Shown: piece by piece, positions 32,195 through 41,957 of the stretch
Layout of the letters: each line of letters starts with the position of its first letter
How positions within the stretch are numbered: position 1 is the first letter of the stretch
Virus record (IMG/VR): IMGVR_UViG_3300044615_000494
DNA from: a virus
Strand: one strand, 5' to 3'
DNA length: 64,000 nucleotides
Translations under genes and position numbers: made by a program
The notes under the pieces: generated by a model
Told to the model about the DNA's origin: nothing
The model's input: only the letters and a program-made list of their open reading frames with translations
Database searches by the model: none

Positions 32195-33052
32195 TTATGT
32201 TCCCCATTCGTTCTTAAACAATGGTACTTGCAGTCTATCGCTGTACCTCAAACCATTCTTCATAGCAAAGTTTGCTACTTGTCTATTATTAAGACTGTAC
32301 ACACTTTCTACACCGCCTACGGGCATGACATACACATTACCTGTAAAACCTTCACTGCGATAAAGTTCTGTGACTTCTAATACTTCGTCCATATCTTCTT
32401 GACTTGCGATAACAAACTTAAGATATACATGACCTGATTCTTGATATTGTAAAACAACATCAGGTCTGATCGCACGTTCACGCTTTTCACCACTAACACT
32501 GAGTTTTGCGCTTACGCTAAACGTGATACTATCATAACTGCGACTGCTGAACGGATCACCCTCAGCCCAATCATATAAAAAGTCTACAAGTTCAGGCTTT
32601 AGTTTCTGACTACCGTTAGTCTCAAACGTGATCTCTTTAAGATTTTTCATGAAGGGATGACTGAGAAGTTTAGGATACATCTTCTGCCATCCTAACAGTG
32701 GCTCACCGCCTGTGATGACTAAGTGTTCGTCTCGCCACTCTTTGAAGGGGAGGATATCTTTGATTGAATCAGCGATGCCATCAACTGAGACACGCGGACT
32801 AAGATGCTTGAACCTAGGATCCCAACTAGCATAACTGTCACATCCGGTACTAACCAGTGGTAAATCTCTATAAGATTTATATAACTTTGCATCGACAGCA
32901 TGACGTTCATTAGTTTTTTCTCCTCTGGGCATACCGAAACCATCGCAAGTGAAGTTACAGCCGAACGTTCTTAGAAAGACTGAAGGCACGCCCATGTAGC
33001 GACCTTCGCCTTGAATACTGTAGAATAGTTCACTTATCTTGATTGAGTTCAT
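32195..33052 (-). CDS. queE: 7-carboxy-7-deazaguanine synthase (radical SAM)
   Basis: ISELFYSIQGEG; VFLRTFGCNFTC...CDSY; VITGGEPLL; FETNG; YSDRLQVPLF. Confidence 0.9.
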   Translation of the reverse strand: MNSIKISELFYSIQGEGRYMGVPSVFLRTFGCNFTCDGFGMPRGEKTNERHAVDAKLYKSYRDLPLVSTGCDSYASWDPRFKHLSPRVSVDGIADSIKDILPFKEWRDEHLVITGGEPLLGWQKMYPKLLSHPFMKNLKEITFETNGSQKLKPELVDFLYDWAEGDPFSSRSYDSITFSVSAKLSVSGEKRERAIRPDVVLQYQESGHVYLKFVIASQEDMDEVLEVTELYRSEGFTGNVYVMPVGGVESVYSLNNRQVANFAMKNGLRYSDRLQVPLFKNEWGT

Positions 33053-33440
33053 TTAAATACCTTATTAATTCTTTATCTGTAGGTTTCACACTGTAGTTCT
33101 GTTTAAAGAATATCTCATAACTATCACTACCGTATTTACCAATACCATAGAGTATATTAGCATTTATTTTGTCCCAAGTCAAGTAATCACGGCTCATACC
33201 ACGCAACCTTTTTTCCCTGATATTATACATACCAAGAGGCTTGATGATATCGATCACTTGTTCTGGTGTACTATTTAGGAGACTTCTTGGGTTTGGAAAC
33301 TTTTTTAGGAACTTTGGAAGCACGTACTTTACTGGCTTTCTTCCCGTTTGGTTCAGCATGATCACTCCTACCATGTGTTCCCATTCGTTCTTTATCTGTT
33401 GCTGAACCATTAGATCGTCTCTTAGTGCTTTTACCTTCAC
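33030..33440 (-). CDS. HhH-GPD DNA glycosylase, MBD4-like (GTG start)
   Basis: WEHMVGVIMLNQT; FLKKFPNP; IKPLGMYNIR; LYGIGKYGSDSYEIF. Confidence 0.8.
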   Translation of the reverse strand: MKVKALRDDLMVQQQIKNEWEHMVGVIMLNQTGRKPVKYVLPKFLKKFPNPRSLLNSTPEQVIDIIKPLGMYNIREKRLRGMSRDYLTWDKINANILYGIGKYGSDSYEIFFKQNYSVKPTDKELIRYLNELNQDK

Positions 33441-33609
33441 TTTGCTTCTCCCTGTATCTCAACACGCCATCTACTATGCCATATTCAGTAGTCTCTGTGA
33501 CCAATCGCCAACCGTCAAAAACTACTATTTTTTCAGTGGTTTCACGCTCTAAAAATTGCTTGAATTCTGATAGGCTATTATACTTTAATTTTTTAGGTAT
33601 ATACATCAT
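33271..33609 (-). CDS. Hypothetical protein; C-terminal ~56 codons overlap the glycosylase gene
   Basis: MMYIPKKLKYNSLSEFKQFLERETTEK; 170-nt overlap. Confidence 0.5.
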   Translation of the reverse strand: MMYIPKKLKYNSLSEFKQFLERETTEKIVVFDGWRLVTETTEYGIVDGVLRYREKQSEGKSTKRRSNGSATDKERMGTHGRSDHAEPNGKKASKVRASKVPKKVSKPKKSPK

Positions 33610-33872
33610 TGAAACTTGAGTTTGTACCAATTCAGTTCAGCATCAGAATATAAGTATATCCTAGTTCTATGATTGTCAGTCAAAAAAGCCCAGGTATATT
33701 TTTGTTTAGGATTTAAAAATTTTAATTCTCTACCCGGGCCAAATACTTGCCAGCACCATTCACGTATCGTACAAAAATCATGACCATCTTTATGAGGGTG
33801 GACGAACTCTAAGCAGTACCCAAAGTTCGCACCACCGGCAAATCTACGATCTAATTTTTGTATGATTATCAA
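33606..33872 (-). CDS. Hypothetical protein (probable TTG start)
   Basis: LIIIQKLDRRFAGG...IREWCWQVFGPG...RIYL. Confidence 0.55.
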   Translation of the reverse strand: MIIIQKLDRRFAGGANFGYCLEFVHPHKDGHDFCTIREWCWQVFGPGRELKFLNPKQKYTWAFLTDNHRTRIYLYSDAELNWYKLKFQ

Positions 33873-33873
33873 A

Positions 33874-34398
33874 TTACCACCAGTCTTCCCAAGGGAACAC
33901 ACACCATTCGGGATTCTCGGCTTTGTTGATCGCCAGGCCAACAAAGTCTGTCTCAAATTCGCTTGCTTGATTTTCGATCAATACAGCAAACCTGACATTC
34001 TTATGCCAAACACTAGCCCATGCTGTTTGTTCTTTAGGTAAGCAACCGCCTTGCCAATCGCTAACAATATTTTTAAATGTATTGCCAGTGTCATTGATGT
34101 CGTCAACAATCAAGATATTCTTGCGCATAGAAACATCCCAGCGACTCTTATATGTCTCTTGCTCTTCAGATGGAACAGTGCCAAATGCGTCCTCTGCCAT
34201 CCATAGATTAGACTCAGCAGGATCTAATGCATAGAAAGGAATGTTTAGGTAATGACTAAGCATCACGCCAGGAATCAATCCTCCCCTAGTCAAACCTACA
34301 ATATAGTCAGGTCTGTAGTCGGCAGTATACATCTGACGCACGATTTCTAGAACCCCGCCCTTGACGAATTCATCTGTGTAATACATTTGTTTATCCAT
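33874..34398 (-). CDS. Type I phosphoribosyltransferase (xanthine/guanine PRT-like)
   Basis: DYIVGLTRGGLIPGVMLSH; PRPP-binding ILIVDDINDTGNT; WCVFPWE. Confidence 0.85.
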   Translation of the reverse strand: MDKQMYYTDEFVKGGVLEIVRQMYTADYRPDYIVGLTRGGLIPGVMLSHYLNIPFYALDPAESNLWMAEDAFGTVPSEEQETYKSRWDVSMRKNILIVDDINDTGNTFKNIVSDWQGGCLPKEQTAWASVWHKNVRFAVLIENQASEFETDFVGLAINKAENPEWCVFPWEDWW

Positions 34399-34400
34399 AA

Positions 34401-34592
34401 TTACCAATGCCTCATTACGTTTGCTATGATGAATAGACATGTTATCACATGTAACACTACCCATGAAGTTTTTAGGAACAATGCGATACGGGCTTCACGC
34501 AAAGTAAGTACAGGGACTCTAGGGCGATCCTCGTCGGTCTCACCCATTAGATGCCCTGTTGCTCTAGCCCAAATTTTTACTAGACTGTTCAT
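34401..34592 (-). CDS. Small membrane protein
   Basis: IWARATGHLMGETDEDRP...VLHVITCLFIIANVMRHW. Confidence 0.6.
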   Translation of the reverse strand: MNSLVKIWARATGHLMGETDEDRPRVPVLTLREARIALFLKTSWVVLHVITCLFIIANVMRHW

Positions 34593-35038
34593 GCTTCGTA
34601 AATTGCGCTGTTTGCACCATGTTCGGCACATTCTACACGCACACAATAACAACGATTGTTAGATTTCTCGCGAATTAAGTTATCAGCATAATTAAAAGCA
34701 TGTTCAGCAAATTTTTCTGCGCCCACACCATTAAAATATGTAAGTTTTGCCAACCCCAATTCTTCTAAATGTTGAAAATCTGCAACGTGCGGGTCTGCTG
34801 TATCTAAACAAACCTTATGATCAAAACTGTCTTCTAACCATTTCTTTAAATCTTTAAGACCCCCGAAATCTACAGCCCAGTTTTTATCATCTAATGTCTC
34901 ACATCCAAAAGTAAACTTGAATGATAAACTATAGCCATGCAATAAATGACAATGACTATGCCCTGCATTGGGCTGTCTAAAGACTGCCGATAAACCTATG
35001 TTGTGTCCGTATGTTTTTGTTGAATAGTACTTTGCCAT
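34589..35038 (-). CDS. queD: 6-carboxy-5,6,7,8-tetrahydropterin synthase
   Basis: SHCHLLHGY; VDFGGLKDLK; FDHK; GAEKFAE; VECAEHGANSA. Confidence 0.9.
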   Translation of the reverse strand: MAKYYSTKTYGHNIGLSAVFRQPNAGHSHCHLLHGYSLSFKFTFGCETLDDKNWAVDFGGLKDLKKWLEDSFDHKVCLDTADPHVADFQHLEELGLAKLTYFNGVGAEKFAEHAFNYADNLIREKSNNRCYCVRVECAEHGANSAIYEA

Positions 35039-35046
35039 CTCTAGTC

Positions 35047-35111
35047 TCCTTTACTAATGAGCAAGTTTGATGGCGGCAGAATTTATAAATCGGGATGACG
35101 CCAAGACCGAT
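35047..35111 (-). ncRNA. Candidate H-type pseudoknot / riboswitch-like leader of queD
   Basis: P1 AUCGG/CCGAU (35111-35107 with 35093-35089); loop UGGCG (35103-35099) pairs with CGCCA (35075-35071); linker UUAUAAAUUCUG. Confidence 0.5.
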
Positions 35112-35115
35112 GTGA

Positions 35116-35283
35116 TTATACGCTTTTTACTTCGTATTGTTCGCTAATTTTAGTAGTCAATGTTTCCCATAATGGCTCTAGTGCATTACGCGGATCCAAC
35201 TCTACTTCTTGATCAGTGATACAAGATACATCATAATTGACGATAACCTTATCACCTTTGTTATTCTCAAATGTTAACTTCAT
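35116..35283 (-). CDS. Small hypothetical protein (55 aa)
   Basis: Hand translation MKLTFENNKGDKVIVNYDVSCITDQEVELDPRNALEPLWETLTTKISEQYEVKSV; ATGA overlap. Confidence 0.55.
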   Translation of the reverse strand: MKLTFENNKGDKVIVNYDVSCITDQEVELDPRNALEPLWETLTTKISEQYEVKSV

Positions 35284-35492
35284 ATCCATCTCCTAACTAT
35301 CACTGTTCCATATCTGTACATATGTGTCTCACAGCCTATTCTGTCAGTAACACTGTGTACTAATTGTATCATCTTTGCGCTGTTTCCGCAAATGATTTCT
35401 AATGGGAATTCGCCCTGATTCATCAATATAAAGTTCTCTACCATAGGTTCGACCTCACTATGTCTGACACCGTGTAGGTCTAACTGATTCAT
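35280..35492 (-). CDS. Stand-alone Smr-domain protein
   Basis: LDLHGVRHSEV...LEIICGNS...YGTVIV. Confidence 0.7.
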   Translation of the reverse strand: MNQLDLHGVRHSEVEPMVENFILMNQGEFPLEIICGNSAKMIQLVHSVTDRIGCETHMYRYGTVIVRRWI

Positions 35493-35965
35493 GGCTTATC
35501 AGAGTACCTTTTTTGATTCTCTGCTTCCCATACACGCTCACGCAAGTTAGTGCTACTGAAACTATGATCGCGGCTATTAAACACTAATTCAATATTACGC
35601 TTCTCGCAGATAGCACGACCAGTAAATTCACTTTGCATATACTCTACACCTAATATACGAACATCAAGGGGTAGTGTTAGCAAAATATCTTCAAGGTCTT
35701 TTTCACTATTATAAACTACGATTTCGTCAACGAATCTATTTGCACTAAGTTGAATCTGTCTTTCTACCAGGCTTTGTATGGGAGCATTCTTTTGAGGTCT
35801 GTCCCAACTCGCATTGTTTTGTAAACCTGCGATTAGATAATCGCAATGATTCTTTGCTTCTGCAAGCATAGCAACATGACCTGCATGTAACAAATCGAAT
35901 TGGCTGAACGTGATACCTATCTTCAACCCTTTATCTTTTAATTCTTTTATTTTATTGAATATCAT
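35489..35965 (-). CDS. Cytidylyltransferase-like nucleotidyltransferase (TagD-like)
   Basis: FSQFDLLHAGHV (HxGH); DYLIAGL; ER; FVDEIV; RDHSFSSTNLR. Confidence 0.85.
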   Translation of the reverse strand: MIFNKIKELKDKGLKIGITFSQFDLLHAGHVAMLAEAKNHCDYLIAGLQNNASWDRPQKNAPIQSLVERQIQLSANRFVDEIVVYNSEKDLEDILLTLPLDVRILGVEYMQSEFTGRAICEKRNIELVFNSRDHSFSSTNLRERVWEAENQKRYSDKP

Positions 35966-36198
35966 CTTTTTAATTCACTCCAAAATTGTTTCTTATGTTG
36001 CTCTTCAAGCCAAACATCTTCATCAGTGAATGTAGGTTGTCTTTTGAGCATTTCCTCTAAAAGAAATTTGATCTCATAGAGTTCTTTTTTAGTCTGCCAA
36101 GATGTCCATCCGTCATTATAAGGGCTACAGATTTCTCCATGAGCCTTAATCAATTGCATTTTAATGCTATCTGGCTCTATTGGTTTCCTGTATCCCAT
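35962..36198 (-). CDS. Hypothetical protein
   Basis: Tiled ORF. Confidence 0.6.
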   Translation of the reverse strand: MGYRKPIEPDSIKMQLIKAHGEICSPYNDGWTSWQTKKELYEIKFLLEEMLKRQPTFTDEDVWLEEQHKKQFWSELKR

Positions 36199-36364
36199 TT
36201 GCGACCTTATTAGTATCAATGATGATGTCCATTGCTTGACGTAGTAACTGTTCGATAGTCACAAGTTTCTGTTCAGTTTCCCAAACTTTCTTGTGCTGTA
36301 GTTCTAATCTAGCCTCTAATTCACATACTTTAGAGAATAGTTGATCGTTAAAGTCTCCCATCAC
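36167..36364 (-). CDS. Coiled-coil hypothetical protein
   Basis: 65-aa ORF. Confidence 0.6.
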   Translation of the reverse strand: MMGDFNDQLFSKVCELEARLELQHKKVWETEQKLVTIEQLLRQAMDIIIDTNKVANGIQETNRAR

Positions 36365-37041
36365 TTACAGCCCTTCATTGCGATATTCAAAAACTCAGCA
36401 CGGGCAGCAGGATCGTTCTTGAATCCACCACCAAGACGGCTTGTGACTGTGCTACTACCTGTATCCTCTACACCACGACTCTTCACACAATAATGTTGTG
36501 CATCAATCATTACAGCAACATCTTCTGTGCCTAGGATGAATTGTAATGTGTGGAAGATTTGTTCTGTGAGGCGTTCTTGAATCTGTGGACGCTTGCTGAA
36601 GTATTCAACGATTCTGTTGATCTTGCTGAGTCCCAATACTTTATCCTTAGGTACATATGCTACTGTAGCAAGACCATCGATGACAACAAAGTGATGTTCG
36701 CAGTTGCTTTGTACATTGACATTACGCTCAACGACCATCTCGTTATACTTCATCTTGTTATCGACCGTAGTACACTTAGGGAACGAATCATAATCTAGTC
36801 CCCAGAAAATCTCATTGACATACATTTTAGCGACACGCTTGGGTGTATCGATCAAACTGTCATCGGTCAAGTCTAATCCTAAAGCCCTCATGATCTCAGC
36901 AAAGTTACCTTCGATGATATCAATCTGTTCTTTACGATCTAGATTGCGCTTTTTGATTGGGGTTTCAACACCCATTTTGACTAGGTGTTCATGAACCTGT
37001 TTGCCAAGTTCTGGGTCTGTTTTTGTCTTATTGTATGACAT
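36361..37041 (-). CDS. folE: GTP cyclohydrolase I
   Basis: DTPKRVAKMY; SNCEHH; GLSKINRIV; RPQIQERLT; AQHYCVKSRG. Confidence 0.96.
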   Translation of the reverse strand: MSYNKTKTDPELGKQVHEHLVKMGVETPIKKRNLDRKEQIDIIEGNFAEIMRALGLDLTDDSLIDTPKRVAKMYVNEIFWGLDYDSFPKCTTVDNKMKYNEMVVERNVNVQSNCEHHFVVIDGLATVAYVPKDKVLGLSKINRIVEYFSKRPQIQERLTEQIFHTLQFILGTEDVAVMIDAQHYCVKSRGVEDTGSSTVTSRLGGGFKNDPAARAEFLNIAMKGCK

Positions 37042-37049
37042 TTAGTTTC

Positions 37050-37066
37050 TCCTTCCTTACACGGAT
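37050..37066 (-). repeat. 17-bp direct repeat copy A (ATCCGYGTAAGGAAGGA)
   Basis: Matches 37809-37825 with 1 mismatch; includes the folE SD. Confidence 0.7.
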
Positions 37067-37806
37067 ATGTTAAATTTTGCATTGATATGCGGTAGAACTA
37101 TTTGTTCTGCGAACCCTTTAAACTGTTCTCTACTTGGATGAGTAGCCCTGTATCGAACTTCTAGATTACTATGATTTCTTAAATGCTCGGGCAAACATGC
37201 GAATCCAGAATTCAAACACCAGTCCCAACATGTTTTGACTGGTAAGAAATTACTCCAGTCTATCATATCGTAAAGATGTTTAACGTTTGGATGCTTCATC
37301 ATAGATTCTTCAGGTAAACCTGCTTCATTAAATATAGACATGAAGTATTTTACGTTGACAGATTTAAGATACCACTGAGTCCTCACTATATGTTCTAATG
37401 CATATATGCAGGAACCTACAGGGTCATAGTAGTTTTTGATATAAGAGATTGTATAGTTATCTTCTTCCCAGGGACGCAGGGAAACCCAACAACCTTCATC
37501 GTTGTCTATGAAACGAAATGTGAATCTAGACTTAAATCTATCTGTATCACTGTGATAATTTTCTAGCCTATGAATGCTAGACCACATCACGCCTACTAAT
37601 AGTTCTTGGGGATTAGATGATTTCAGAGCAGTCTCTACACCGTGAATGACGGATCGACTGATGTACCCATTACCTGCACCGTTAACGGCATAATTATATA
37701 AGGGTAGGTTTAAAGATTCGGCTACATAGTTTGGCCAAGCGATTCTGCCTTCAGTAGGAATACCCTCAGTAAAACTACAACCACTTACTATTAACTTTTC
37801 TAACAT
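37057..37806 (-). CDS. SGNH/GDSL-like hydrolase-fold protein
   Basis: IVSGCSFTEG; NYAVNGAGN; C-terminal THPS. Confidence 0.7.
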   Translation of the reverse strand: MLEKLIVSGCSFTEGIPTEGRIAWPNYVAESLNLPLYNYAVNGAGNGYISRSVIHGVETALKSSNPQELLVGVMWSSIHRLENYHSDTDRFKSRFTFRFIDNDEGCWVSLRPWEEDNYTISYIKNYYDPVGSCIYALEHIVRTQWYLKSVNVKYFMSIFNEAGLPEESMMKHPNVKHLYDMIDWSNFLPVKTCWDWCLNSGFACLPEHLRNHSNLEVRYRATHPSREQFKGFAEQIVLPHINAKFNISV

Positions 37807-37808
37807 CG

Positions 37809-37825
37809 TCCTTCCTTACGCGGAT
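37809..37825 (-). repeat. 17-bp direct repeat copy B
   Basis: Matches 37050-37066 with 1 mismatch; includes the SD of the 37806 gene. Confidence 0.7.
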
Positions 37826-37874
37826 AAAATTTGTAAATCAACTCGCTACCGTTGTGTAGCATATGTATTTATAT

Positions 37875-38618
37875 CTAACTGATATAACCCTTACTTTTTA
37901 AATGGGGCAATATCACCTTATCTACAAACATCTTACTAATAGCAGGCGTAGGATGCTGTGTTTCATCGAACTTCATACCTTCTCTTTTACCCCAATCATA
38001 CATGTTCTTTATGGGTAGAACGTTACTATAATCTATCTGATCGCGCAGATATTTTACGTCTGTATGATTATTATATTTCAAATAATCATCACCGTCTAAA
38101 CTGTCGTAGTTATATGTAGTGAAAAAATATTTGATATTGTGCATTTTTAAGAACCATTGAATGCGCAAAATATTTTCTATAGTGTTTATGTACAGACCTA
38201 TATCATCATAATAATGTTTATAATAAATCTGACTTAATTCATCACTCCAGCCCGGATGCATCAGATAATTATTCTGTTCAGCACCTACGCTACACGGTTG
38301 GCTGTAATACCAGTTGGTTGATTTGTGCGGATCCCACTGATAATAATCTACAGGTTCATGCGTCAGATATACAGACTTTCTAGATACTCCCGACCACATC
38401 ACTCCCACTAGTAGATTTTCAGGTTTGTACTTTTGCACAGTCAAGCATTGATTGACTCTGAAGATCACACGTTTAGAAATAATGTCGTTACCTGTGCTAC
38501 CTGCACCGTCAAAAAAAGCCTGCATGTCTAATGCATCACGCAAGAATACAGGCCAGTTATCGCCGGGTACTTGTGTGAAACTGCAACCTGCTGATATCAA
38601 TATTCTAGGATTTGCCAT
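37875..38618 (-). CDS. SGNH/GDSL-like hydrolase-fold protein
   Basis: ISAGCSFTQ; GAGSTGN; VGVMWSG shared with neighbour; DETQHPT. Confidence 0.7.
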
Positions 38619-39633
38619 TTACAAAAACACCATTATACTGTTGCGTTACGCGGACAAAAGTCGTACACTTGCTAAGATTTTTTAATGTATGCGCACCTAC
38701 ATACGTACATGTGCTACGGATACCTCCCAGTAAATCTAGTACTGTGTTATTAACAGGACCACGATATGGGACTACGACCGTTCGCCCTTCGCTACTACGA
38801 TAACTTGCTATACCGCCGTTGTGCTTGTTCATAGCAGTATCAGAACTCATTCCATAGAATGTAATTTTTCCATCTTCTACGGTGCCGCCACCTTCGTCAT
38901 GTCCGGCTAACATACCACCAAGCATGACGAAATCTGCCCCTGCGCCAAATGCTTTAGCCACATCGCCTGGGCAAGTACACCCGCCATCAGCAATGATATG
39001 TCCCCCAAGCCCATGCGCCGCATCGCTACACTCAATGATCGCACTAAGTTGCGGGTAGCCAACCCCAGTTTGTATCCTAGTTGTACATACCGATCCTGGC
39101 CCGATTCCGACTTTAACAATATCTGCTCCTCGTAGTATCAATTCTTGTGTCATATCTGCGGTAACAACGTTACCTGCAATGATTGTACAATGCGGAAATG
39201 CTTCGCGCACTTCTTCTACATAATCACCGAAATGATCGCTGTATCCATTGGCAACATCTATGCAGATAAAATGAATCTCAGGATAACTATTGATGATACG
39301 GCTTAGTCTTTGAAAGTCTTTCTCATTAGTACCTGTGCTTACTGCTAGATGATTACCACCGATCTTGCCGATCGTATCAGAAAACTGATCTTCAGTATAT
39401 GACTTAACAAGGCATGTGAACATACGATGTTCATATAATGCTTCAGCCATTCCTAGAGTACCTACACCATCCATGTTAGCGGCCATGACTGGAACACCTG
39501 TCCATTCAAAACCGCTATGCTTGAACTTGTAAGTACGATTCAAATCGACTTCTTTACGACTAGATAGTGTGCTACGCTTGGGGCGTATCAATACATCCTT
39601 GAAGTCTAACTTGATATCTTCTTCGATACGCAT
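38605..39633 (-). CDS. guaC: GMP reductase
   Basis: [18 protein letters not shown]; AANMDGVG; CIDVANGYS; [13 protein letters not shown]; IADGGC; FYGMSS; SEG. Confidence 0.95.
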
Positions 39634-39837: not shown

Positions 39838-41010
39838 TTAATATTTGCTTTCTCTCGTATGATTACGATAATCCGTACTCATACGCAACCATTGCTCACC
39901 CTTACCTTCAAGGATGTCACAAATTCTATCTATCGTCTTGTCAGTCCAGTCACTTATTTTACCCATGTATTGACTTTCAACAAAAATAGCATTGTTTAGT
40001 TTGATCAATGCATCAGTCTTAGACCATGGCACATACATACGTGAATGATCATTAGCGAATGTCTCGGGGAAACTGCGATATGCCGGATACACTACGTTGC
40101 ATCCTAATGCATCTGCTTCGCTGACAGTATTACTCACCCAGTCTTGTAATGCACAGTTGAACAACACACGGCTGTCGTTCAATAAACTATAGTAATCATT
40201 CTTGTCGAGATCGCTATAAATTGTAAGTTTACCTTGTTCTTCAAGGCGTAGTGTACGTTCCATATACGAACTGTTATTGCTACGTAACTTTGCGCCACTC
40301 AATAATGCAAACTCTACATCTTTGTGAATCTTAGTATATTCTTCAATGATGTCCATGTAGAAGTCAGGCTGTTTCTCTTGATCCCAACGTGCGGCAAACA
40401 CAACACGCAACTTACGCTTGTCGAAAGGCTTGATCTCTTTGACACGACCACGAACTTCTTCTTTACCAAATGCAAGACCACTGATATTATAGATCGGAGC
40501 CTTCCAGCCTGCGACCTTCATATGCATGACCATCTCTTCATTGCTAGCCAATACGCCATCAACGAACTCGTTGACCATTTCTTCATACTTGCGCATGAAG
40601 CCTTGCATATCCCATACGTGCAAGAAGTCATCAGGGTCGATAGTCTGTGCTAGACAACGAACGTAGACCTTAGGGCGATACTCTTTAGGTACTTGCTTGA
40701 GAATATAAGGGATGCTGTCAATACCACTAGTATACATGTCTTCAAAATAGATGACATCTTCGCTTGTGACTTCACCGATTTTCATCAATCTGACAAGTTC
40801 AGCCATCTGTGTGAGGCTGTAATATGTTCGACCATGTGCATCAAGCACTTGACCAGTAACGATGCTCTGATCGTTGCTCAATGTCTGACCATTGACTAAT
40901 TGATAGTTGATATCTCTACGCTTGAATACACGTTCATTCCAGTCTTGCAACTGTAATGTATATCTTGCCTTGTAGGGTTCTAGACCCATGTAGTATAATT
41001 TACGCATCAC
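39838..41010 (-). CDS. GT-B glycosyltransferase
   Basis: VVFAARWDQEKQPDF; VLFNCALQDWVSNTVSEA; YRSFPE. Confidence 0.75.
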   Translation of the reverse strand: MMRKLYYMGLEPYKARYTLQLQDWNERVFKRRDINYQLVNGQTLSNDQSIVTGQVLDAHGRTYYSLTQMAELVRLMKIGEVTSEDVIYFEDMYTSGIDSIPYILKQVPKEYRPKVYVRCLAQTIDPDDFLHVWDMQGFMRKYEEMVNEFVDGVLASNEEMVMHMKVAGWKAPIYNISGLAFGKEEVRGRVKEIKPFDKRKLRVVFAARWDQEKQPDFYMDIIEEYTKIHKDVEFALLSGAKLRSNNSSYMERTLRLEEQGKLTIYSDLDKNDYYSLLNDSRVLFNCALQDWVSNTVSEADALGCNVVYPAYRSFPETFANDHSRMYVPWSKTDALIKLNNAIFVESQYMGKISDWTDKTIDRICDILEGKGEQWLRMSTDYRNHTRESKY

Positions 41011-41773
41011 GCCTCTCTATATCTGCTTCTATACATTCAACACCATATTGTACTTCAAGTATGTGACAAGGTTCATCATAATTATTCTGGCCTTGATGCC
41101 ACACTTTTTGACCAATCACATATTCTTCATTGGGATGTTTAGTAACTTTTATTATACTCTGATTATATTCAGTTACAATATCGCATTTACCCTTAAGTAT
41201 ATACCAATGTTCACTTCGGTTGAAATGACGTTGCATACTCAATTGTTTGCTTGGTTCGATCACTAATTCTTTTACTTTATAACCCGGTTTATCATCTAAC
41301 ACACGATAATAGCCCCATGGTCTGTGAACTTTCGGGTTCTTCCATTCTGCTAATATCCAACTACTGCTATTGATTTTTGTAGTACCACCTACCCCGAATA
41401 TAAACTCAATATTATCATCATTGATATCCATCTCAGGAATATTTTCTTTTGTGCGGTCACCGCCATTAGCAAATATAATTCTACTGTGTGGGTATTGTTT
41501 ACGAACTAATCTTAAAGCATCTTTTGCGCTATTGTCGCTGTCATCAAATGATATGACATCATGCACGCCTTTTAATTCGCTGATGATGATGCTACGGTCT
41601 TCAAACTGCATGAAAGGACGTCCTTTCTTGCGTTCTAACCAACTGTCAGAATTGACACCGACGATTAAGATGTCTCCTAATGCGCCGGCGTTTCTGAACA
41701 ACTCAATATGCCCAGCGTGAAGGGGGTCGAAACCCCCTGTCACTAAGACAACCTTAGGCGTTCTTTCCTGCAT
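41000..41773 (-). CDS. Bifunctional cytidylyltransferase-like / mannose-6-phosphate-isomerase-type cupin protein
   Basis: TGGFDPLHAGH; VGVNSD; FANGGDR; RPWGYY; LSMQRHFNRSEHW; ILEVQYG. Confidence 0.85.
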   Translation of the reverse strand: MQERTPKVVLVTGGFDPLHAGHIELFRNAGALGDILIVGVNSDSWLERKKGRPFMQFEDRSIIISELKGVHDVISFDDSDNSAKDALRLVRKQYPHSRIIFANGGDRTKENIPEMDINDDNIEFIFGVGGTTKINSSSWILAEWKNPKVHRPWGYYRVLDDKPGYKVKELVIEPSKQLSMQRHFNRSEHWYILKGKCDIVTEYNQSIIKVTKHPNEEYVIGQKVWHQGQNNYDEPCHILEVQYGVECIEADIERRDA

Positions 41774-41957
41774 CAAACGCCCACATGTCTTTTGCGTCTT
41801 TCCCGGCAACGAATTTACTAAACTGACGATAAGCAAAACTCCTATTGTCATAGAGAGTCGCCTCGTCATACTTGTAGCCGAAGTCCTTACAGAAATTTAG
41901 ATAATTTTCCAAATCATCAAAAATCTGCCTTACTCGGTTCTTGTCGTTCTTTGCCAT
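41754..41957 (-). CDS. Hypothetical protein
   Basis: IFDDLENYLNFCKDFGY; AGGAG SD. Confidence 0.65.
   Translation of the reverse strand: MAKNDKNRVRQIFDDLENYLNFCKDFGYKYDEATLYDNRSFAYRQFSKFVAGKDAKDMWAFDAGKNA

Follow-up and report, generated by a model that had tools for sequence, protein, structure and literature searches.

The queD leader and its gene neighbourhood

The window analysed here is the whole 64,000-nt stretch of DNA from the IMG/VR record IMGVR_UViG_3300044615_000494, and the genes around the leader considered below lie on its minus strand. It belongs to the replication region of a phage, where a family B DNA polymerase, a ligase and a clamp-loader-like gene are found, and it also contains a 7-deazapurine gene set (32195-39633, minus strand) encoding FolE, QueD, QueE, a phosphoribosyltransferase (PRTase)-like protein and, at 38605-39633 (minus strand), an IMPDH/GMP-reductase family protein. 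The queD gene itself (34589..35038, minus strand) encodes a 149-aa member of the PTPS/QueD family (PF01242; PHROG 'QueD-like'), and is followed on the same strand by the purine PRTase-like gene (33874-34464, minus strand), for whose product the closest solved structure is 1vdm, by two small ORFs and by queE. An HhH-GPD/endonuclease III-like ORF of 136 aa (33030-33440, minus strand) belongs to the same operon, in which queE and the PRTase-like gene flank it, and would place a DNA glycosylase-type protein within a 7-deazapurine cluster. The same QueE-XGPRT-x-QueD-FolE block is found in the Synechococcus phage BUCT-ZZ01.

The ORF upstream of queD (57 aa) ends in a TAA stop codon at 35116-35118 (minus strand) and the queD start codon occupies 35036-35038 (minus strand), leaving a gap of 77 nt (35039-35115). 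In the minus-strand RNA this gap holds an H-type pseudoknot spanning 35071-35111; a preliminary description of this DNA had proposed such a fold for the leader, and its helix P1, 13-nt loop and helix P2 were all found again in the same places, together with the A/U-rich linker that it had pointed out. The 5′ strand of P1, AUCGG (35107..35111, minus strand), in which the GG is invariant in the family described below and pairs 4:35, 5:34 and 6:33 of alignment A2 covary, leads into L1, which starts with UCU (35104..35106, minus strand); the consensus here is H-C-U, with the C and the U invariant (ACU 87, UCU 53, CCU 37 and GCU 1 among 178 unique instances). The 5′ strand of P2, UGGCG-U-CA (35096..35103, minus strand), contributes to five variable pairs, then supplies an invariant U (35098) that faces an invariant C, and ends in C-G and A-U pairs, the original 5-bp core being UGGCG (35103-35099) with CGCCA (35075-35071). 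L2, UC in the window (35094..35095, minus strand) and UC, AC or CC in 88, 57 and 28 of the 178 unique instances, ends in an invariant C (35094) that abuts the 3′ strand of P1, which is the position of the preQ1-I 'specificity' cytosine. That strand, CCGAU (35089..35093, minus strand), completes P1, the inner four pairs of which were found independently by RNAalifold. It is followed by the A-rich L3, UUAUAAAUUC (35079..35088, minus strand), made up of 8 nt (the length in 173 of the 178 unique instances) and an invariant UC, and finally by the 3′ strand of P2, UG-C-CGCCA (35071..35078, minus strand), for which the evidence consists of pair and covariation counts and of a pattern test of its extension.

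Conservation and distribution of the pseudoknot

Taken alone, the window leader is uninformative with regard to structure (nested MFE of -15.9 kcal/mol, z = -0.26 versus shuffles). The decisive evidence is comparative. A set of 80 loci was fetched from IMG/VR by QueD protein (78-85% amino-acid identity, contigs up to 357 kb); among the resulting 81 sources, i.e. the window and the 80 retrieved loci, the pseudoknot is present in 77, and in nearly all of the retrieved loci the same element sits 20-40 nt upstream of the start codon. The copies were aligned with MAFFT (alignment A1, 53 distinct copies) and by a model-based procedure (alignment A2, 77 copies). In A2, 92.8% of the cells are paired versus 70.4% upon shuffling, a value reached by 0 of 500 shuffles, in statistics that overstate independence since the sequences are related; sliding the partners by 1-3 columns leaves 36-47% of the cells paired, and the covariation score is 0.50 versus 0.15. 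Double-sided changes are seen in three of the five P1 pairs and six of the seven P2 pairs, and A1 gives the same picture. Covariation among related queD leaders had been named in the preliminary description as the way to check the fold, and both P1 and P2 are indeed conserved and covarying in them.

At least 178 unique motif sequences are known to us, in which the P1 arm occurs in 13 versions and the P2 arm (5-mer) in 39, and about 14 positions are invariant, concentrated in L1, L2, L3 and the helix junction ends. These positions are kept across marine and freshwater lineages and at least five QueD subfamilies. By comparative sequence evidence, the H-type pseudoknot is shown to be under strong selection. 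Interleaved covarying inverted repeats fit only a single-stranded pseudoknot, and as such a protein-binding DNA palindrome, which would not give rise to them, is rejected; a frameshift or readthrough pseudoknot was likewise discarded, as the element sits after a stop codon or after promoters. Three close QueD relatives (L050, L052 and L060) are without the motif, a short leader and a consensus promoter being all that they possess, so that the element is dispensable in some lineages.

Beyond the five variable pairs of P2, the 5′ side continues with an invariant U-C-A and the 3′ side carries an invariant U-G-C, replaced in a marine subgroup by UCG with UCCGC. Such flanks suggest a U.C mismatch followed by C-G and A-U pairs. 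The extension was examined by four exact-pattern scans of IMG/VR, after which GGNCU and P1 complementarity were required of each match. With an A-U extension pair, 104 of 115 pattern matches were true motifs, and with G-C 83 of 120, in both cases among the matches listed, versus one of 117 for A.C and none of 71 for G.U, both of these being complete scans. In the protein-seeded set the same pair reads AU in 55 cases and GC in 4, with no unpaired cells. One of the two extra P2 pairs is thus proven, in terms of sequence comparison, by the A-U/G-C swap, and the two-by-two counts point to a P2 of 7-9 bp with a conserved U.C mismatch, an L2 reduced to (N)Y-C, and an L3 of 8 nt plus UC.

The association of the motif with a single enzyme family is strict. 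Two covariance models find one copy in the 64 kb of the window, at 53-55 bits, and five large phage genomes likewise hold one strong copy apiece; the weak second matches (≤11 bits in the window, 19 and 15 bits in two of the phage genomes) did not contain the motif on inspection. Among the matches listed, a QueD homologue is encoded at 186 of the 187 pattern-found motif loci, and lies directly downstream of the motif at all 91 loci with enough sequence. Of ten downstream ORFs sampled, eight are PF01242 proteins, from at least five diverged subfamilies, and the other two are a cupin and a methyltransferase. FolE is found upstream of the motif in 25 of 74 loci and never downstream, and QueE follows it in 39 of 91. 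Furthermore, a sigma-70 promoter (at least 10/12) is found within 70 nt upstream in 37% of instances versus 1% of controls, and the commonest distance from the end of its -10 box to P1 is 7-8 nt, which puts the element at the start of the mRNA. The window has only a weak sigma-70-like site, CGAACA-17-TATAAT (9/12; 35115..35143, minus strand), which ends 3 nt before P1 and is too close to it; transcription from this site would begin inside P1. Use of this promoter is doubtful, and readthrough from the genes upstream, which are tightly packed, may instead supply the window leader.

When one genome for each of 185,579 prokaryote species was searched with a strict pattern, seven matches were returned, of which three are real, all on contigs of Bacteroidota MAGs and, provided that the contig extends so far, immediately followed by a queD-type start or ORF; the other four were GC-rich coding noise. 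No cultured carrier came to light, blastn with three leader variants giving chance matches only, and in six cultured phages with a related QueD (BUCT-ZZ01, RHEph04, ACP17, R5C, X1 and Me-ZS1) queD is packed against the upstream gene, with no leader; a covariance-model search of the whole BUCT-ZZ01 genome found no motif. The motif was found only in uncultured phage contigs and in contigs of the three Bacteroidota MAGs.

Predicted masking of the ribosome site and direction of control

In every subgroup, the ribosome site is complementary to a stretch made up of the 3′ strand of P2 and the few bases after it. The main conserved alternative pairing in the window, present in its MFE fold, joins an anti-start segment, GCCAUC (35069..35074, minus strand), whose GCCA is common to the 3′ strand of P2, to GAUGGC (35034..35039, minus strand), and covers the start codon. 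Equivalent combinations of strand and partner in leaders of other subgroups include UGCCAUUG with CAAUGGCA, AAGUCAUC with GAUGACUU, CCCAUA with UAUGGG and, of the Shine-Dalgarno (SD) type, CCUAUG with CAUAGG and ACUCC with GGAGU. The window's own SD sequence, AGGAG (35046..35050, minus strand), is engaged to a lesser degree, its GAG being partly paired to CUC in the alternative fold. It had been suggested in the preliminary description that CUUGCU...AGGAG might sequester the SD; this pairing does belong to the alternative fold, but is a minor part of it, the start codon being what the main pairing masks.

Among 147 unique leaders, the best masking helix takes in the AUG in 112 cases and the SD in another 34, and shares at least 2 nt with P2 in 127. 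It has a mean length of 6.4 bp versus 4.6 in shuffled leaders, and a mean energy of -8.5 versus -5.0 kcal/mol. The leader's own ribosome binding site (RBS) pairs better than the sites of other subgroups in 103 of the 147 (p ~1e-10, for sequences that are not independent), and a change in the second codon is matched by one in the P2 arm, AUGACU occurring with AAGUCAU in 8 of 8 cases. When the nucleotides of the knot are blocked, the predicted probability that the RBS is unpaired increases, from 0.40 to 0.59, for the 90 leaders that have no so-called group-b hairpin, and never falls; in the 57 group-b leaders the predicted change in accessibility is small, from 0.57 to 0.63. A near-consensus sigma-70 promoter lies inside the element itself in 29 of these 57 leaders (including L035 and L176; e.g. 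L035:1429-1500), with a TTGACA-like -35 box in L3, TATAAT in the loop of the SD-masking hairpin and a 17-nt spacer, and a transcript initiated there would be without the switch and could bypass it.

In the window, P1 with the masking hairpin is calculated at -15.7 kcal/mol versus approximately -9.8 for P1 with P2, in nearest-neighbour energies that contain no pseudoknot or tertiary terms, while P2 with its extension amounts to -6.3 to -7.7 kcal/mol. As the masked fold is the more stable of the two, the masked state would be the default, and the knot would need stabilising in order to open the RBS. Given that the 3′ strand of P2 is common to the knot and to the masking helix, formation of the knot is predicted to expose the ribosome site, i.e. 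the logic would be ON. A terminator or attenuator was looked for in the leader and none was present, and a reading of the element as such was set aside. On the basis of these folding models, knot formation should switch queD translation on. The preliminary description had expected feedback control, and control in that (OFF) sense is not supported by these results, as the knot would expose the RBS in 146 of 147 leaders and the leader has no terminator.

Relation to known RNAs, candidate ligands and alternatives

Searches against Rfam 15 with 91-101-nt slices of the window and of two diverse relatives (L002 and L041) returned no match to the preQ1-I family (RF00522) at E ≤ 10, nor did a 4-kb scan, in agreement with the earlier remark that the loop fits no classic preQ1-I subtype. 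The same slices gave no Rfam match to preQ1-II or preQ1-III (RF01054, RF02680), which are HLout pseudoknots of about 80-100 nt, whereas the phage motif is of the H-type and comprises ~45 nt. Permissive Rfam matches on four stretches (snoRNA, TMV pseudoknot, PyrC leader and Mu-gpT-DE) were dismissed as noise. The features of preQ1-I used for comparison are those given in a 2024 review (PMC11625349). The phage motif has in common with it a small H-type pseudoknot, a 5-bp P1 with an invariant closing G-C, an A-rich L3 and a location in the leader of a 7-deazaguanine pathway gene, and the likeness to preQ1-I that had been noticed at the outset is further borne out by the invariant C that abuts the P1 3′ strand. 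The specificity cytosine of preQ1-I, which follows U (type I) or A (types II and III), thus has its equivalent in the phage motif, in which the base before the C is mostly U or A and in 28 instances C. The differences are as follows. Instead of H-C-U, L1 of preQ1-I opens with a conserved U (U6, or UU), and P2 of preQ1-I is 3-4 bp long, in contrast to the longer, mismatch-bearing helix described above. L3 of preQ1-I ends in a ligand-contacting A that abuts P2, in contrast to the invariant UC seen here, and the phage L2, at only 2-3 nt, is also unlike that of preQ1-I. With regard to the expression platform, in preQ1-I the SD forms part of the 3′ strand of P2 or adjoins it, or else a terminator follows, and all described preQ1 classes are OFF switches, whereas in the phage motif that strand is an anti-RBS and the predicted platform is ON. 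Examples of preQ1-I come from B. subtilis queC, T. tengcongensis, C. antarcticum and E. coli, in contrast to the QueC-less phage contigs and Bacteroidota MAG contigs considered here. As such, we file the motif as one that would work like a preQ1-I-type pseudoknot aptamer but is not a member of that family.

The proposed logic has precedent. The ZTP, PRPP and adenine add riboswitches are translational ON switches in which an aptamer strand competes with an RBS-masking helix, and in which the ligand, on binding, opens the RBS of a gene whose product uses up that ligand or reacts to it; the folds and sequences of these RNAs are unrelated to those of the phage motif, and only the mechanism is compared. 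The leader has the generic attributes of a riboswitch, namely a covarying aptamer with many invariant unpaired bases, a place in the 5′ UTR of a coherent gene set and a platform mutually exclusive with the aptamer, the last being weak in group b. Few riboswitches have been reported from phages, where such RNAs are rare, and the reported ones copy bacterial classes. Glutamine/glnA type riboswitches in pelagiphage-like phages (PMC9004378) are likewise metabolite-type RNAs of marine and freshwater phages, but are such copies, whereas the phage motif has no counterpart in the 185,579-species genome set apart from the three Bacteroidota MAGs. A search of the literature, including the 104- and 224-motif surveys, the survey of 10,000 viral structured RNAs and two language-model surveys from 2026, found neither this queD motif nor a preQ0 riboswitch or fourth preQ1 class.

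Considering these observations together, we regard the element as a cis-acting translational ON switch in the queD leader, and most likely a new class of metabolite riboswitch with a preQ1-I-like architecture, a reading that we hold to be probable, if not strongly so. In the absence of a stabilising factor the leader would reside in the fold that masks the ribosome site; a ligand bound in the P1/P2 junction would lock the knot, the shared strand would be pulled away, and QueD would be translated. Translation of the genes behind queD (PRTase-like, QueE) may rise as well. The ligand would be paired by the invariant C that precedes the P1 3′ strand, which suggests a guanine-faced (2-amino-4-oxo) heterocycle, a face common to pterins, 7-deazaguanines and guanine. 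QueC is absent from the window, from seven near-complete carrier genomes and, among the matches listed, from 186 of the 187 motif loci; Pfam searches of the carrier genomes for QueC and TGT gave no full-length match, and two PP-loop fragments (26 and 17 bits) in them are not QueC. It follows that preQ0 or preQ1 made by the phage is an unlikely signal, and the earlier idea of preQ0 sensing is disfavoured to the extent that it supposed a phage-made ligand. There is precedent for phages that lack QueC and yet produce dDG or dCDG (PMC10516641). The ON logic, the placement of control right after FolE and the lack of QueC collectively favour feed-forward sensing of the substrate of QueD or a related pterin. 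Our preferred candidates are dihydroneopterin triphosphate or some other pterin, and next to these a species of the 7-deazapurine or guanine kind; further candidates are CDG, 7-deazaguanine, guanine nucleotides and PRPP. Activation by a product would be odd logic for a biosynthetic gene, and as such the ligand would not be the obvious one.

Several alternatives deserve consideration. The leader could be a structured but ligand-independent device, in which the knot and the masking helix respond in a kinetic or thermal manner (to nascent transcription, temperature or Mg2+), or protect the mRNA from decay. It is consistent with this that P1 begins within a few nucleotides of the predicted transcription start, that the knot is transcribed before the RBS, and that P2 with its extension is already fairly stable at the energies given above; however, the invariant positions, mostly unpaired or at junctions, far exceed what a hairpin or thermometer needs, and the close association with a single enzyme family speaks in favour of a signal specific to the pathway, so that we consider such a device unlikely. 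Mutually exclusive folds would be equally workable with a protein effector, phages commonly use translational operators, and QueD itself, another phage protein or a host factor such as S1 might stabilise the knot. This is in our view distinctly unlikely, as no partner other than QueD is consistently adjacent (only QueE and FolE are frequent, at the 39 of 91 and 25 of 74 loci already mentioned), and the size, fold and preQ1-I-like pocket positions are typical of small-molecule aptamers. A reading along the lines of the preliminary description, a preQ1-I variant that senses preQ0, preQ1 or CDG and hides the SD in end-product feedback on queD, draws on the resemblance in topology and in several pocket positions and on the membership of queD in the 7-deazaguanine pathway. 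It is nevertheless very improbable: the masked and knotted states share a strand such that the knot exposes the RBS in nearly all leaders, there is neither a leader terminator nor an RF00522 match, L1 is without the conserved U next to P1, and phages lacking QueC would have no preQ0 or preQ1 of their own.

Returning to the metabolite-responsive ON switch, a narrower version of it may be put forward, in which a phage-restricted riboswitch reads a pterin or 7-deazapurine intermediate (e.g. dihydroneopterin triphosphate or CDG) after FolE and gates a QueC-less, probably nucleotide-level DNA modification; this we offer tentatively, with the doubt weighing somewhat heavier than the conviction. The gene set of the window looks like a nucleotide-level route of the tubercidin/toyocamycin type rather than base exchange by DpdA, the PRTase-like and IMPDH/GMP-reductase proteins being ones that we take to be comparable to ToyH/TubE and ToyE/TubD. 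If correct, the interpretation would describe an RNA sensor invented or kept by viruses and not borrowed from their hosts, in a motif that is abundant in uncultured aquatic phages and absent from Rfam. Among the RNAs that guard 7-deazaguanine metabolism it would represent a fourth architecture, and the first to act as an ON switch, and would give a handle on how phages time or dose the DNA hypermodification that defeats restriction. At ~45 nt, the element is also a compact candidate aptamer for a guanine-like or pterin ligand that might be usable as a sensor.

Genes related to sugars are also found near the motif. Between FolE and the polymerase region of the window (37057-38618 and 39838-41869, minus strand) lie two DUF6071 paralogues, a glycosyltransferase and a nucleotidyltransferase-cupin fusion, and similar genes flank the motif on a 183-kb contig, L518 (G031:C1:156000-172000), where a second copy from one Haliscomenobacter MAG stands before QueD. 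The surroundings of that copy include FolE, three radical-SAM proteins (one of them B12-binding), a GT2 protein, a methyltransferase and an epimerase, and this FolE/QueD/radical-SAM/sugar cluster resembles that of the window. The contig is either a jumbo phage or a bacterial cluster and hints at Bacteroidota hosts, and the sugar genes near the motif may indicate a sugar-decorated modification.
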